The notes under the pieces: model-generated | Databases searched by the model: none | Told to the model about the DNA's origin: nothing | The model's input: the letters and a program-made list of their open reading frames with translations, nothing else | Made by a program: the position numbers and the translations under genes | Assembly: GCA_903850915.1 (NCBI GenBank) | Contig: CAINMV010000023.1 | Span: 51,769-115,768 of the forward strand | Length of the DNA: 64,000 bases | Source of the DNA: an uncultured Bacteroidota bacterium | GTDB taxonomy: Bacteria > Bacteroidota > Bacteroidia > UKL13-3 | Direction: 5' to 3' | Shown: positions 5,985 through 61,533 of the stretch, piece after piece | Layout of the letters: every line of letters begins with the position of its first letter | Position numbering within the stretch: position 1 is the stretch's first letter

Positions 5985-7085
5985 ATGGAAAAAATTTGCC
6001 ACATTACGTTAAGCCAACCGGCTTTTAACACCCGTATTTTATTAAAAGAATGCTTCACCTTAAAATCGACCTATTCAATAGTAATTTTAGCCGGTAATAC
6101 TGAAAATAAAACAATCAATGGCATTGAAATTATTGGTTTTAAATGGAAAAACAAGCCTTCGCTACGAATGTTTTGGACCCTATGGCGACTCGCCATAAAG
6201 CACAAATCTGCTTTATATCACATACATGAAGCAGCTTTGCTTCCGTTGGCCTGGCTGTTAAAGTTCTCCGGCAAAAAAATCATTTATGATGTAAATGAGA
6301 TTCCAACCCATTTAATCCCTTCAATCACGCAAGCTTCGCCTCGCCATTCGAAAGCCAACTATCTAAACCACTGGGCCGCAAAAAATACAGCCCTTTTATT
6401 ATCTCAGCGCAGTTACATATCATTATACCAAGGTGTAAGTAAAAATATGTGTGTGGTTGAAAACTATGCTGACCTAGAACTAATGTCACCTTATCAGGTT
6501 ATCGACCGTTCTGCTTGCAATGGCATGGTTTATATTGGCCAAGTTTCAAGTAAAAAAGGTGTCTTGGTTATGCTGGAAGTGTTAAACAATTTAATTTGTC
6601 GTGGACATCAAATTTCGTTAGCAGTAATTGGTGAGATGGTCGAACCAGGTTTAAAACAAAAAATAGCGTCGCTTCCTTTTTACGGAAAAATCAAAAAACA
6701 CCTTCAATTTCACAACCAACTTGAACTTACAGAGAGTTATAAAATTGCGAAAGCGGGATTTGTAGGCTTGTGTTTAACAGATGAACTTATAGAAACCCAA
6801 GAAATTTATCCGACTAATATTTTCGAATATATGAGCGTAGGGTTGCCTGTGGTAGCAAGTAACATCAGCATTTATAGAGCGGTAATTGAAAGAAGGGAAT
6901 GCGGCATTGTAGCCCCATTTTCTGATATTGACGCAATTTCAGATTCGATAGAGAAAATTTATCAAGACAAAGAGCTACAGAAACTCTTTTCTGCTAACGG
7001 CCCTAAGGCAGTTTCATTAAATTACAATTGGGCTCACGAAAAAAATATTTTACTGGACTTTTACAGAAACAATCTTCGAAGTTAA
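5985..7085 (+). CDS. Glycosyltransferase family 4 (GT-B fold), diverged
   Basis: YHIH, KIIYD, MVYIG, FEYMSVGLPVVASN and YNW motifs. Confidence 0.85.
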   Translation: MEKICHITLSQPAFNTRILLKECFTLKSTYSIVILAGNTENKTINGIEIIGFKWKNKPSLRMFWTLWRLAIKHKSALYHIHEAALLPLAWLLKFSGKKIIYDVNEIPTHLIPSITQASPRHSKANYLNHWAAKNTALLLSQRSYISLYQGVSKNMCVVENYADLELMSPYQVIDRSACNGMVYIGQVSSKKGVLVMLEVLNNLICRGHQISLAVIGEMVEPGLKQKIASLPFYGKIKKHLQFHNQLELTESYKIAKAGFVGLCLTDELIETQEIYPTNIFEYMSVGLPVVASNISIYRAVIERRECGIVAPFSDIDAISDSIEKIYQDKELQKLFSANGPKAVSLNYNWAHEKNILLDFYRNNLRS

Positions 7086-54382: not shown

Positions 54383-54414
54383 AAATCCTCAATCATTTTC
54401 ATGATTGAGGATTT
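54383..54414 (-). terminator. Intrinsic terminator directly after rpoB
   Basis: 14-bp stem AAAUCCUCAAUCAU-GAAA-AUGAUUGAGGAUUU followed by U-rich sequence. Confidence 0.85.
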
Positions 54415-54434: not shown

Positions 54435-57400
54435 TTACTCTGCGGTTACATCCAATCCTAGTCCACGTAATTCATGAATCAATACATTAAATGACTCAGG
54501 TAATTGTGGCGTTGGCATTGGCTCACCTTTAACAATCGCTTCATACGATTTTGAACGTCCGATGATGTCATCACTCTTTATTGTCAATACCTCTTGTAAA
54601 ATGTTTGATGCACCGAATGCCTCGAGAGCCCAAACCTCCATCTCACCAAAACGTTGACCTCCAAATTGAGCTTTACCACCCAAAGGCTGTTGTGTAATTA
54701 ATGAATATGGGCCTATTGAACGAGCGTGTAACTTATCATCAACCATGTGTCCTAACTTCAACATGTAAATGATACCCACTGTAGTTTTTTGTTTGAACTT
54801 CTCACCTGTTTGTCCGTCGGTTAAAAACGTTTGACAATTTTCTGGTAATCCCGCTTTAACAATATATTGAGCAATTTCTTCTTGAGTAGCACCATCGAAA
54901 ATCGGTGTTGCAAATTTGCATCCCAATTGTTCTCCAGCCCAACCCAACATAGTTTCATAAATTTGACCTAAGTTCATACGACTTGGCACACCCAATGGAT
55001 TCAATACAATATCCACTGGAGTTCCATCTTCAAGGAATGGCATATCTTCACGTGCAACAATACGAGCAACAACTCCCTTATTACCGTGACGTCCAGCCAT
55101 CTTATCCCCTACCTTTAACTTACGTTTGGTAGCGATATAAACTTTCGCCATTTGAACGATACCGGTTGGCAACTCATCGCCTACTGTTAAAGCAAATTCT
55201 TCACGGCGATATTTTCCAACTAAATCATGCGCAGCACGACGATAGTTTACTAAGATATCACGAATTAATATATTTTTATCTTTATCGGTAGTCCATGCTG
55301 TTGGATTAGTCAAATCGTAATCCAATTCAAACAATGCTTTTTGAGTGAACTTAACGCCTTTACCAATCAACTCTTGCTCATACACATCATATACACCTTG
55401 CGAGGTTTTGCCATTCAATAAAGTCATTAGCTTTTCAACTAAACGCTCTTTCAATTTCGCGAGGTTTTTGTTGTGGGTATCCTGCAATTTTGAGGTAACC
55501 AATTTCTCTTGATCTTTGGTTAACTTATCTTTCTTTATTTTGGTAAACAATTTCTTATCTATAACCACACCGTTTGTTGATGGAGGAGCTTTTAGAGAGG
55601 CATCTTTAACATCACCTGCCTTATCTCCAAAGATAGCACGTAATAATTTTTCCTCAGGTGAAGGTTCAGTTTCACCTTTAGGTGTGATTTTACCAATTAG
55701 AATATCTCCTTCTCTTACTTCGGCACCGATACGTATCAAACCGTTTTCATCGAGGTTACGTGTTGCTTCCTCACTTACATTCGGAATATCGTTGGTTAAT
55801 TCTTCTTCACCACGTTTTGTATCGCGCACCTCAAGCTCATATTCAGTAACATGTATAGATGTGAAAACATCCTCTTGTACTGCTTTTTCGCTGATAACAA
55901 TCGCATCCTCAAAGTTAAATCCTTGCCAAGGCATGAAAGCCACCTTAAGATTTCTACCCAAGGCCAATTCACCTAATTCAGTAGCATATCCTTCGATGAT
56001 AACATCGCCTTTTTTAATTTTATCTCCTTTTTTAACCAACGGGCGTTGATTTACGCAGGTATTTTGATTGGTACGTTTGAATTTAGTAAGATGATACGTC
56101 TTCATTTCACCATCAAAATTCAACAATTCTTCTTCAGCAGTAAGGTTATAACTAACCACTACTTTTTCTGAGTCAGCATATTCAATTTCGCCATTTCCTT
56201 CAGCTACCACTACTGCACGACTATCGCGAGCCACACGACCTTCGAGACCTGTACCTACAATTGGCGATTGTGGTTTTAATAAAGGAACAGCTTGACGTTG
56301 CATATTCGATCCCATCAAAGCACGGTTCGCATCATCATGCTCCAAGAACGGAATTAAAGATGCTGCAATACTTACAATTTGATTTGGTGCAATATCCATG
56401 TATTGAGCCTCCTCTGGGGATATCGATGGGAAGTCACCATCTTTACGTGCACGAACCTTCTCTGTTAAGAAATTCCCTTTTGCATCGTATTTTGAGTTTG
56501 CCTGTGCAATAGTTTTCCCATCTTCATCTTCTGCACTTACGTAGGTAACAGGCTCATTCACTTGCACTTTTCCGTTTTGGATTCTACGGTATGGAGTTTC
56601 AATGAAACCCATGCCATTCACTTTTGCATGAACACAAAGTGATGAAATCAAACCGATATTTGGTCCTTCAGGAGTTTCAATAGTACACAAACGTCCATAG
56701 TGAGTATAATGTACATCTCGCACCTCAAAACCAGCACGCTCTCTACTCAATCCACCAGGGCCTAACGCCGACATACGGCGTTTGTGTGTAATTTCAGCTA
56801 ATGGATTGGTTTGATCCATAAACTGCGAAAGTTGAGACGTTCCAAAAAAGGAGTTAATTACTGAGGATAATGTACGTGCGTTAATAAGGTCGGATGGATT
56901 GAACACCTCGTTATCACGAATGTTCATACGCTCACGGATGGTGCGAGCCATACGAGCCAAACCAACTCCGAACTGCGCAAATAACTGCTCACCTACGGTA
57001 CGTACACGACGATTACTCAAGTGGTCAATATCATCCACATCAGCTTTATCATTACTTAATTTGATTAAGTTTTTGATGATGTCAATGATATCGTCTTTTG
57101 TTAATACACGACTCTTTTCGTCAACTTTATTTAATTTACGGTTGATTCTATAGCGTCCTACCTCACCTAAATCGTAACGTTTATCCGAAAAGAACAAACG
57201 CTCAATTACACCACGCGCCGTTTCTTCATCTGGTGCATCGGCATTACGCAATTGACGGTAAATTAACTCAATCGCTTCTTTACCATTGTTCGAGGTATCT
57301 TTTTGTAATGTGTTATGAATGATTGCAAAGTCGTTCGATTTACTTTCTTCTTTATGAAGAATTATCGTTTGAACTTTAGCTTCAAGAATAACGTCGATAT

Positions 57401-58238
57401 GATCTTCTGTGATGTCGATATCACGCTCAATTAAAACTTCATTACGCTCAATAGAAACCACTTCACCGGTATCTTCATCCACAAAATCTTCAACCCAGGT
57501 GCGTAACACCCGCGCTGCTAATTTTCTTCCAACTGCATTTTTCAAGCCAGATTTAGAAACTTTAATTTCTTCCGCCAAGTTGAATATATTTAAGATATCC
57601 TTATCACTTTCAAATCCGATAGCACGGAATAAAGTAGTAACAGGGAATTTCTTCTTACGATCGATGTAAGCATACATGATGTTATTTACATCTGTAGCGA
57701 ATTCAATCCAAGATCCTTTAAATGGAATGATACGTGCGGAGTATAATTTTGTTCCGTTAGTATGGTAGCTTTGTCCAAAGAACACGCCTGGAGAACGGTG
57801 AAGTTGAGAAACTACAACACGTTCAGCACCGTTAATAACAAACGTACCCTTTGAGGTCATGTAAGGGATATTTCCTAAATATACGTCTTGAACGATAGTT
57901 TCAAAATCTTCATGATCTTTATCGGTACAGAATAACTTTAATTTTGCTTTTAAAGGCACATTGTAGGTTAAACCACGATCCATACACTCTTCGATGCTGT
58001 ATTTAGGAGGATCTACGAAGTAGTCAATAAATTCCAATACAAAAATGCCACGAGTATCCGAAATCGGAAAATTCTCCATAAACACTTTGTAAAGTCCTTG
58101 AGATTTTTTGTTCTCTGTTGAAGCGTCCAATTGGAAAAACTCCTTGTAAGACTGGATTTGCACGTCCAAAAAGTCAGGGTAATCGATGACTTTTTCTACC
58201 GATGCAAAACTGATACGATTGATGTCTTTAGTTGCCAA
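54435..58238 (-). CDS. rpoB: DNA-directed RNA polymerase subunit beta (TTG start)
   Basis: [60 protein letters not shown]. Confidence 0.99.
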
Positions 58239-58505
58239 TGCTTATCAATATTAATAGTTAATAATTTATTCTCTCTCTCTTCACTGCCGGATACATTTCG
58301 TCCTTTTAAGTTACAGATAAAACCAATAATTTGTATTGGTGAAATGCTTGTGCGACAACACAACTATCTGCATCTCCCTTTTCGCAGTTTGTAGGCAAAA
58401 GCATACAAGATACATTGCCATTGATAAACTCAGCTTTAAAAGCCGACGGCAAAGACCAATTTTATATTAATTATGTAGAAAAAACAAACTCGAGTACTGC
58501 AAAAG
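58239..58505 (-). ncRNA. Candidate structured 5' leader of rpoB
   Basis: Seven helices found by eye; four contain G-U pairs that work only in the rpoB sense. Confidence 0.6.
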
Positions 58506-58510
58506 GATTG

Positions 58511-58541
58511 CAAATATAGCTTTTTTTTGTGTAAAATCAAA
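58511..58541 (-). promoter_or_regulatory. rpoB promoter TTTG-N19-TATATTTG
   Basis: -33 at 58541-58538 and -7 at 58518-58511. Confidence 0.75.
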
Positions 58542-58669
58542 TTTTGGCAAAAGAATTGTAGGAAGAGATGCCAGAAGGCTCAGCTGAATAGCTAAATCAC
58601 CTCAGAAAGAAACGATCAAAAAAAGCATAAAATAATGATTGTCAATTGCAAATAGATGAAAAATCGGGG

Positions 58670-59176
58670 TTAAAATACTGTCTTCACCAACATGGTTTTC
58701 AAATCCACCTCAATGCTCTTCTTCACCGATTCTACGATTCGCCCGATTTCTACCCCATCTTTATAAACAATAAAGGTTGGTACATTTAAAATATTGTTTT
58801 TCTCGGCTTCGCCCTTTAAGGTTTTTTTCTGACGATCGACACCAAAAAGCGTTATTGATGAAGCAGGAAACTGAGCCTCATCTATAACACGAAAAAACTT
58901 AGGTAAAAGAATTCTCGTGTCATCGCACCAAGTTCCACCAAAAACCACAAAAGTAACACGTTGATTGTAGGCTTTTAAAAATAAAATATCGGTATTCAGC
59001 GCCGAATTATAGCTATCATAACCCGCCTTAAACCATGGATAGATTTCAGTATTTAGCATACCACGGTTAATTTTCCCTACAAGTACTTTCTCACTTTCAT
59101 TCGAGATCAACTTATATTGCTTACAGCTTGAATTTATCATAAAAGCTAAAATTAAAAGTGCAAATAACTGTTTCAT
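58670..59176 (-). CDS. Thioredoxin-fold lipoprotein (single active-site Cys, WCDD)
   Basis: Lipobox SSC; GTWCDD, VPTFI, EIGRIVE. Confidence 0.85.
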   Translation of the reverse strand: MKQLFALLILAFMINSSCKQYKLISNESEKVLVGKINRGMLNTEIYPWFKAGYDSYNSALNTDILFLKAYNQRVTFVVFGGTWCDDTRILLPKFFRVIDEAQFPASSITLFGVDRQKKTLKGEAEKNNILNVPTFIVYKDGVEIGRIVESVKKSIEVDLKTMLVKTVF

Positions 59177-59265
59177 TTTAAAAATGTTGTTTTTTGTTGC
59201 AAAAATAACACAATTCACCACTAAAGACTAAATACTTAAGACTATTGGCAATAATAACTACCCTT

Positions 59266-61533
59266 TCATCGTTGCGCATCTACCACAGCCAGTGTTACCA
59301 TATTCACAATATCACGAATTTTACTTCCCAACTGCAAAATATGTACCGATTTCTTCATGCCAATAAGTACAGGGCCAATCACTTCTCCGTCACCTATTTC
59401 TTGCATTAAATTATACGCAATATTTCCTGCAGAAAGTTTTGGAAAAATAAGAATATTGGCTGCACCATTACCATCGGCCAAGCTACTAAATGGGTAATTT
59501 TCAATAAGTAGCTCCTGATTCAGTGCAAACTTTGCTTGCATCTCACCATCAACAATTAAATTAGGATCCTGTTCTTTTATGATACGCAAGGCCTCTTGCA
59601 TTTTATGCGGCGTGATACCATCAACACTGCCGAAATTGCTATAACTTAACAAGGCTACCCGAGGTACTATATTAAACTTTCGAACCTCATCGCAGGTAAG
59701 CTTGCAAATCGCAGCCAAATCAAATGCACTCGGATCACGATTTACCGTTGTATCCGCGAGGAATATAGGGCCTTTTTTAGTTAACATAATATACATACCT
59801 GCTACAATATGCGTGTCGTCGCGCTTGCCAATTACTTGCAATGCCGGACGAATAGTACTTGGATAATTGCGCGTTAAACCAGAAATCAACGCATCAGCCA
59901 AGTTGTTTTCAACCATCATACAACCATAATAATTACGCTGGGTCATTAGCTTTCGAGCTTCGTGTAAGGTGGTTCCTTTGCGTTGTCGTTTACCATAAAG
60001 TTGTAGCGCAAATTTCTCTCTATTGTCTTCGTCCTCATTGTATGGGTCGATGATAGGACAATCGTATAAGTCGATGTTGTGCTCATTCATTATTTCCTCA
60101 ACACGCTTGCGGGTACCTAGTAAAATTGGGATGGCGATGCCTTCGTCGCGCACCACCTGCGCAGCTCTTAAAATATTATAGTTTTCTGCTTCAGCAAAAA
60201 CCACACGTTTAAGATTAGTTTTTGCTTTTTCTGTAATAAAACGAATAAATTTATTGTCTTTGCCAACGCGCTTTTGCAATTCAATTTTATATTCATCCCA
60301 GTTGGTGATAGTCTTTTTAGCAACACCACTTTCAATAGCCGCTTTGGCTACAGCAATAGATACGGCTGTGAGTAGGCGCGGATCAACGGGTTTGGGAATA
60401 ATATAATTTCTTCCAAATTCTAATGACATGTCATTATATGCTGACTTTACATTCTCGGGTACTGGCTCGTGCGCTAGTGCTGCTAACGCTTTCACAGCCG
60501 CAAGTTTCATGGCCTCGTTAATGGCGGTAGCACGCACATCAAGTGCTCCTCTGAAGATATAAGGGAAACCCAATACATTATTCACTTGATTTGGATAATC
60601 GCTGCGCCCTGTAGCAACTATTACATCCGGACGTGATGCAACGGCTAAATTATATTCAATTTCTGGGTCTGGATTTGCCATGGCAAACACAATAGGATCA
60701 GGCGCCATACTCTGCAACATTTCCTGACTAACCACATTGGCTTTACTAAGGCCAATAAACACATCCGCATTTTTCATGGCATCTTCCAAAGTATGGACAT
60801 CCCTAGACGTAGCAAAATGTCTTTTGCGATCGTCCAGCTCCTTGTCATCCTTGCGAAGCGGACCTTTACTATCGAACATAATTATGTTTTCAGGTTTTAC
60901 ACCGAGGGCAATAAACGTTCGCGTGCATGAAATTGCAGCCGCACCAGCACCATTTACAACCATAACAATTTCCTCCATTTTCTTGCCCACGATTTCAACC
61001 GCGTTAAGCAATCCGGCACCACTTACAATCGCTGTTCCATGCTGATCGTCGTGCATTATAGGAATATTGAGTTCCTTCTTTAATCGCTCTTCTATCTCAA
61101 AACACTCTGGCGCTTTAATATCTTCTAAGTTAACACCGCCGAAGGTAGGCTCAAGTATTTTAACGGTGCGTACAAATTCATCGATATTGGTAGTATTTAA
61201 CTCTATATCAAAAACATCAATATCTGCATAAATTTTAAACAAAAGCCCCTTCCCTTCCATCACGGGCTTGCTGGCTTCTGGCCCGATATTACCTAAACCG
61301 AGTACCGCTGTGCCATTGGAAATTACTGCTACCAAATTACCTTTGGCTGTGTATTTATAAACATCCTCTGGATTAGCTGCGATGGCCAAACAAGGTGCTG
61401 CCACACCAGGACTATACGCTAAACTTAAATCACGTTTGGTTTGTGTAGGCTTGGTAGGCACTACTTGAATTTTTCCAGGACGGTGTTTGCTATGGTAGTC
61501 TAATGCGTCTTTGGTTAATTTATCATTACTCAT
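59266..61533 (-). CDS. maeB: NADP-dependent malic enzyme with phosphotransacetylase-like domain
   Basis: [54 protein letters not shown]. Confidence 0.97.

Follow-up and report, generated by a model that had tools for sequence, protein, structure and literature searches.

Candidate leader RNAs of rpoB are already known, without a mechanism, in two other lineages, as outlined in the source reports: the Lacto-rpoB motif (RF01709; Weinberg et al., 2010, PMC2864571), an RNA motif that precedes rpoB in Lactobacillales, and the Rhodo-rpoB motif upstream of rpoB in Rhodobacterales (Weinberg et al., 2017, PMC5737381). In E. coli, the control of rpoBC is described as acting on transcription as well as on translation, an attenuator being located 3' of rplL (PMC4670729), while in mycobacteria a dual-promoter region of rpoB-rpoC is described as adjusting the level of RNA polymerase (PMC6181997). 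The setting of RNA polymerase core level and stoichiometry is incompletely understood, even in E. coli.

The locus described here belongs to a genus of uncultured freshwater Bacteroidota and was analysed in a window of 64,000 nt, to which all coordinates refer; features lie on its minus strand unless indicated otherwise. It resembles Lacto-rpoB in having a conserved structured RNA directly upstream of rpoB in one lineage, likely cis-regulatory, and differs from this Lactobacillales motif in its phylum and in the separation of rpoB from rpoC. Since the leader gave no covariance-model score (window, E <= 10; four relatives, E <= 1), it is not homologous to Lacto-rpoB by this test. The function of Lacto-rpoB is unproven. 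Its constant placement before rpoB within a narrow lineage is shared with Rhodo-rpoB, whereas the secondary structure is unrelated to that motif, and the lack of an Rfam 15 match is informative only if Rfam 15 holds Rhodo-rpoB. The present leader thus adds a third phylum, and a third structure unrelated to the other two, to the known rpoB leaders.

Regarding E. coli, the likeness to the rplL-rpoB region lies in an untranslated stretch before rpoB that, in the favoured functional model, would set beta and beta' output independently of neighbouring genes. In contrast to E. coli, however, rpoB here has its own promoter, rplL is not upstream, the leader contains no terminator-like hairpin and rpoC is not downstream, and a G+C-rich hairpin with a U run, the hallmark of an intrinsic-terminator attenuator, was not detected between promoter and start codon. 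Like mycobacterial rpoB, the gene has a dedicated promoter and a conserved upstream region, but one promoter motif and a folded RNA stand in place of the DNA-level promoter interference and linked genes described for mycobacteria.

Gene context of rpoB

The rpoB gene (54435-58238) encodes a product of 1267 amino acids with six Rpb2 domains (Pfam), has a TTG start codon and is present in single copy (one match in the genome). It is monocistronic, a terminator-like hairpin with a T run (54383..54414) being located directly 3' of the gene; convergent genes encoding a TonB receptor and an HmuY-like protein are found downstream. The 5' neighbour is a thioredoxin-like ORF (58670-59221) on the same strand, with a malic enzyme gene next to it, and the gap of 431 nt preceding rpoB contains the promoter and the leader.

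In this genus, rplJ-rplL, rpoB and rpoC form separate transcription units, each on a contig of its own. In genome G000, rplL was detected on contig 12 (L057) and rpoC on contig 19 (L020), in agreement with an earlier reading of the sequence alone (the sequence-only reading) that had called rpoB an orphan. On contig 12, rplL is followed by a hairpin and T run, which we read as a terminator, and then by a gene for a DEAD-box helicase. In other genera, rplJ-rplL were present directly upstream of rpoB in 24 of 24 loci from seven genera (L7/L12 confirmed by Pfam for one), and rpoC was present 20-116 nt after rpoB in all 16 genera, each represented by one genome; in the genus studied here, rpoC was found near rpoB in none of three genomes within the available 0.6-4.4 kb. 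As far as sampled, rpoB is unlinked from both rplL and rpoC only in this genus, which constitutes a natural experiment, with both rpoB links broken in one genus while 16 others, seven of them checked for rplL-rpoB, keep rpoB-rpoC. To our knowledge, the linkage of rpoB and rpoC is nearly universal.

The rplL-rpoB spacer of the other genera measures about 110-190 nt and contains a conserved G+C-rich hairpin (UUGACCCCGG...CCGUGGGUCAA) in all 11 of the loci shown (among L027-L050, e.g., L030:1956-2069), often followed by U's. This hairpin looks like an attenuator, a simple terminator scan being negative at the one locus tested, and it is this spacer hairpin of the family relatives, rather than anything in the present genus, that resembles the E. 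coli arrangement.

For rpoC, a dedicated TTTG/TATATTTG promoter is present in six of seven congeners, and the leader of this gene is short (~80 nt) and unlike that of rpoB (L020:960-1086). The rpoC leader is conserved and has a small hairpin that appears to covary, and upstream of its promoter the species differ; in most species of the genus it starts with a U-run/A-run hairpin, as read by eye from the alignment. Near the start of contig 19, short tandem repeats with CACTG/TTGTA units (L020:175-330) are located 5' of a small basic ORF, itself followed by rpoC.

Promoter, transcript and fold of the leader

The 431-nt gap contains a consensus Bacteroidota promoter, TTTG-N19-TATATTTG (58541-58511), composed of a -33 element TTTG (58538..58541) and a -7 element TATATTTG (58511..58518) separated by a 19-nt spacer, both elements being invariant in five of five species. 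The Bacteroidota sigma-A consensus has been given as TTTG/TANNTTTG (PMC6847099), and the -7 box of Bacteroidota promoters has been placed at -12 to -5 (PMC6847099, PMC9723704). From the position of this box relative to the start site, transcription is predicted to start near 58506, giving a leader of ~268 nt. As in other sigma-A promoters of the phylum, to which a sigma-70 promoter scan is not applicable, TTTG lies upstream of a TAnnTTTG element without G at the two n positions. The usual spacing between these two elements in Bacteroidota is about 19-21 nt.

Conservation among the five species starts ~20 nt upstream of the -33 box, the first conserved stretch being CTACAATTCTTTTGCCAAAA (58542..58560), which abuts this box and may represent an UP-like element; farther upstream the sequences are unrelated in the alignments. 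Positions 58547-58574 (plus strand), just upstream of the promoter, match 27 of 28 nt of the coding strand of a gene of the phosphoglucomutase/phosphomannomutase family (encoding KRIVGRDAR) in G015, a genome of another genus. The orthologue of this gene in the present genome lies 34 kb away on the same contig and differs at the nucleotide level, and only the last 16 nt of the match are common to the congeners; the match could be a gene relic or due to chance.

Contigs assembled from public metatranscriptomes of three studies match the locus exactly or nearly exactly at 57771-58447, 58218-58489 and 58224-58494. All three bridge the start codon and join leader and coding region, with 5' limits of 58447-58494 and none extending past 58494, and a fourth RNA-library contig covers 58125-58316. 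In RNA runs X15-X18, the region upstream of 58494 was uncovered except for one unlike piece, missing cover by itself proving nothing. Contigs of this kind do not give strand, exact ends or level and may derive from DNA in the library, and they are a weak hint, consistent with a start near the predicted site and speaking against a TTG-proximal start as the sole one.

The first ~200 nt of the leader, here termed the core, fold into a two-domain RNA in which helix P1 encloses the strand J1/2 and the hairpins P2 and P3, followed by a three-way junction of P4-P6. Cut so as to run from the invariant 5' end through the three-way junction (58311-58507 in the window), the core measures 197-201 nt in all five species. 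RNAalifold applied to the five leaders predicts a long-range helix between the invariant 5' end (UCCUUUUUGCAnU) and AnUGC-AAAA-GGA ~125 nt downstream. This is P1, whose 5' strand (UCCUUUUGCAGU, 58496..58507) comprises the first nucleotides of the transcript and pairs with the 3' strand (ACUGCGAAAAGGG, 58376..58388) over 12 pairs, with 96.6% of cells paired. J1/2 (ACUCGAG..UUGUUUUUUC..AUUAAUAUAAA, 58458..58495) is a mostly unpaired, U-rich strand of near-invariant columns, which is unpaired or weakly paired in the folds; the junction strands are near-invariant as well. P2 (58409..58457) is a long irregular hairpin with outer strands GGUCUUUGCCG/UGGCAAUGUAUC and apical strands UCGGCUU/AAGCUGA, in which 5 of 16 pairs changed on both sides, while P3 (UUGUAUGC/GCCUACAA, one mismatch, 58389..58408) has 77.5% of its cells paired. 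The three-way junction (58312..58372) consists of P4 (UGCAGAUAG/UUAUCUGUA, 58372-58364 with 58320-58312; 5 of 6 pairs changed on both sides), P5 (UUGUGU/GCACAA, 58363-58348) and P6 (ACCAAUA/UAUUGGU, 58340-58322). The core is followed by a poorly conserved tail (58264..58311), a variable stretch and then a purine (GA) run at 58282-58269 that is present in four of the five species, and by a near-invariant, AU-rich translation start region (58236..58263 in the five-species alignments) that includes the TTG start codon (58238-58236).

Many of these elements had been named in the sequence-only reading. The segments UUGCCGU/AUGGCAA, CGGCU/AGCUG and UUGUAUGC/GCCUACAA (with one mismatch) are all located where that reading had placed them, as are the GA run and the TTG start, and UGCAGAUA/UAUCUGUA, said to close a three-way junction with UUGUGU/GCACAA and ACCAAUA/UAUUGGU, is present, the junction itself being borne out by covariation. 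The same holds for P2 and P3. Of the six listed helices, five persist in the four congeners through compensatory changes. The exception is the proposed closing helix ACUGC/GCAGU (58388-84/58287-83), which does form in the full-length minimum-energy fold of this species but is not conserved: the downstream GCAGU reads GACGU, GACAU or GGCAC in relatives, and ACUGC pairs within P1 in all five species. The full-length fold of this species also has a long helix between a U run and the GA run, which was likewise rejected as not conserved.

When each core is folded separately, P1, P2 and the three-way junction appear in the minimum-energy structure in five of five species and P3 as a local hairpin in four of five, the exception being G004. 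The corresponding z-scores are -2.40 for this species and -2.01, -1.78, -2.99 and -3.22 for the relatives (150 dinucleotide shuffles). The interval 58239-58505, for which an RNAfold z-score had been suggested as a check, does not outperform chance, as 51 of 200 shuffles fold equally well (z = -0.58), and folding better than shuffled sequence is obtained only with the ~200-nt core boundaries (58311-58507). The antisense core folds about equally well (z = -2.39, -0.04, -1.72, -2.54 and -2.97), and the assignment of the strand therefore rests on the G-U pairs, the promoter and the gene.

Covariation and distribution of the leader

The set compared consists of related sequences from five species of a single genus, the four congeners being 76-78% identical to the present species over promoter and leader. 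A two-species covariance model that took its structure from the fold of G003 recovered all five cores at 248, 233, 107, 91 and 45 bits. In the model alignment of the five species, 92.2% of 244 cells are standard pairs and 20 of the 53 pairs changed on both sides, the alignment used for counting pairs being itself fitted to the covariance model. None of 500 column shuffles reached any of the five measures, a control that overstates significance because the sequences are related. When the 3' partners were slid by 1-3 columns, 1-5 both-side changes were left and 30-46% of cells remained paired.

P1 is nearly invariant, with one pair that reads A-U in three species, G-C in one and U-A in one, and P4 has a different sequence in each of the five species while its pairing is retained. 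G002 has a different, continuous hairpin at the site of P2, which was left unaligned by the model and counted as gaps. As to the strand, 15 G-U cells (manual tally, model alignment) fit the rpoB-sense strand and would be mismatches on the other strand, the antisense folding energy being about equal. Compensatory changes keep the pairs, as expected of a conserved structured RNA, in these five related sequences. Thus, a structured, lineage-restricted 5' leader of rpoB mRNA is well supported as genuine by sequence comparison. The proposal of a candidate new cis-regulatory RNA on the orphan rpoB is supported, as a covarying fold lies between the conserved promoter and the start codon and is bridged to the gene by the RNA contigs.

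Within the genus, the covariance model gave one match per genome in five of seven genomes; in the other two, the contig starts 23 nt before rpoB (G006) or the assembly does not include the first 500 rpoB codons (G001). Outside the genus, nothing convincing was found by the model in 112-114 genomes of the family and 150 genomes of the class, although distant relatives may be missed, the model in these wide searches having been built from two sequences and the filters being strict. The best outside match, in G092 (28.5 bits), is partial, lies inside an ORF, has many broken pairs and was judged spurious, and the remaining family matches have E values of 0.13-0.86 per genome. A metagenome pattern scan returned one contig, identical to the window, and a genome scan returned the five known MAGs. 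The suggestion that the same motif might precede rpoC found no match, the only copy in each genome being that at rpoB. As far as searched, the leader is confined to the genus that broke both links, as follows from the searches taken together with the gene context.

Against Rfam 15, the leader gave no match, be it at E <= 10 in the window or at E <= 1 in four relatives, and a cmscan of 57900-59000 at E <= 10 gave three weak matches, all outside the leader. The earlier statement that no known riboswitch is recognisable agrees with this search, in which neither the known riboswitch aptamer classes nor the L10 leader and other ribosomal-protein leaders matched the window or the four relatives. A literature search covering few subscription journals yielded no account of an rpoB leader in Bacteroidota, nor of rpoB and rpoC being split in this phylum.

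Possible function and alternative explanations

A terminator scan gave no terminator-like sites in 58000-59300 that could serve as an expression platform, and there is no consistent masking of the start region, where the mean unpaired probability at -20..-1 is 0.27-0.56 across species. A start-codon hairpin, AUUGAU/AUCAAU, occurs in the folds of two species, is broken without compensation in G002 and was rejected, and an 8-bp match between the internal loop of P2 and the start region was dropped as it occurs in G000 only. Pairing between J1/2 and the tail falls at different places between species and is equalled by 84-158 of 200 shuffled tails, and no conserved pairing of core and tail was found. 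Since terminator, start masking and core-tail pairing were not found, the core would more probably be an operator recognised by a protein than a self-contained switch.

The favoured mechanism, held tentatively and at somewhat below even chances, is feedback on beta synthesis by beta or an assembly form of the polymerase. It is favoured because transcriptional and translational autoregulation of E. coli rpoBC offers an analogy and because rpoB lost its coupling to rpoC in the rearrangement. In E. coli, rpoBC is reportedly subject to autogenous translational control (work attributed to Dykxhoorn et al. in 1996). The folded core would act in cis on the output of the beta subunit: surplus beta, an assembly intermediate or RNA polymerase would bind the core, probably via the invariant single strands, and binding would either reduce initiation at the weak but strongly conserved UUG start region or shorten the life of the mRNA. 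The effect would replace both the lost coupling to rpoC and the rplL-rpoB spacer hairpin seen in relatives, while P1, in which the transcript's initial nucleotides are base-paired, is likely to shield the 5' end as well. A bolder form of this proposal, rather doubtful at present, is that the leader is a direct RNA sensor of polymerase assembly, where free beta, alpha2-beta or core would bind and throttle the UUG start, so that beta would be balanced against separately transcribed beta' purely via an RNA operator that arose after the break between rpoB and rpoC. Against a stoichiometry sensor speaks that rpoC is without a matching element, which such a sensor might be expected to share.

The main rival to feedback is a passive role without any sensing, by which the core, above all P1, would stabilise and insulate a long, essential, monocistronic mRNA by shielding it from 5'-end-dependent decay and keeping the start free. 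That P1 starts at the first transcribed nucleotides, that the rpoC leader of the same genus also opens with a U-run/A-run hairpin in most species, and that an expression platform or switch was not found are all in keeping with such a role, which is nevertheless on the unlikely side: a single terminal hairpin would be enough for protection, whereas the retention, at ~75% identity, of two domains, the three-way junction and a near-invariant single strand of ~35 nt is more typical of a recognised RNA. The same multi-helix junction and conserved unpaired nucleotides in a 5' UTR could belong to a small-molecule riboswitch tuning rpoB (e.g., to a nucleotide or alarmone pool), a reading also favoured in that no protein-binding precedent can be shown; it is unlikely, given that there is no match to an Rfam riboswitch, that neither a terminator nor a start-masking platform was found and that the element occurs in one copy per genome in a single genus. 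Ligand sensors usually recur. Quite unlikely, too, is an operator for another trans-acting factor, such as a ribosomal protein (e.g., L10/L12, once partners in the operon), a general RNA-binding protein or a small RNA, in place of RNA polymerase: rpoB was ancestrally co-transcribed with rplJ-rplL and the invariant single strands resemble a binding site, but none of the r-protein leaders in Rfam, that of L10 included, matched and nothing ties the fold to a particular protein.

The compact ~200-nt core, with ~45 nt of poorly conserved sequence between it and the start codon, might be an independent small RNA gene with read-through into rpoB; this is improbable, as no terminator lies between core and rpoB, RNA-library contigs from three runs extend unbroken from the core to the coding sequence, inspection by eye showed no second promoter motif, and the element always accompanies rpoB, even where the upstream gene is different (G002). 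Highly improbable is the view that the conserved feature is a translated uORF (58373..58311, minus strand, 20 codons, overlapping the three-way junction) or that the conservation is neutral. An ATG follows P1 in four of five species and the peptides read from the alignment are alike in three, but G004 is without the ATG and has a shifted frame, the differences between G000 and G005 at codon positions 1, 2 and 3 number 7, 6 and 5, without third-position bias, and the same columns covary as RNA pairs.

Feedback by beta or an assembly form of the polymerase, if true in its sensor form, would make the leader the first structurally defined RNA operator for the synthesis of a bacterial RNA polymerase subunit, and a dated case of a regulatory RNA arising to compensate an operon break. 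With leader and operon break coinciding in one genus, the emergence of a structured RNA is linked to a rearrangement that can be dated, and the RNA is compact and suited to binding tests with polymerase subunits; the functional reading draws on five sequences from uncultured organisms.

Regarding the start codon, the TTG start of rpoB (TTGGC...) is also present in several other genera of the family (L028-L046), and the weak start is therefore older than the rearrangement. A 22-nt sequence identical to the start region of rpoB, comprising 16 nt upstream and TTGGCA, was detected on contig 12 of G000 (6103-6124; L019:1501-1522), where it is intergenic, 2.4 kb downstream of rplL and before an ORF for a small secreted protein without a Pfam match. 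This copy is restricted to this species, being absent from five congeners, and could be a footprint of the rearrangement, a micro-duplication or a chance match.
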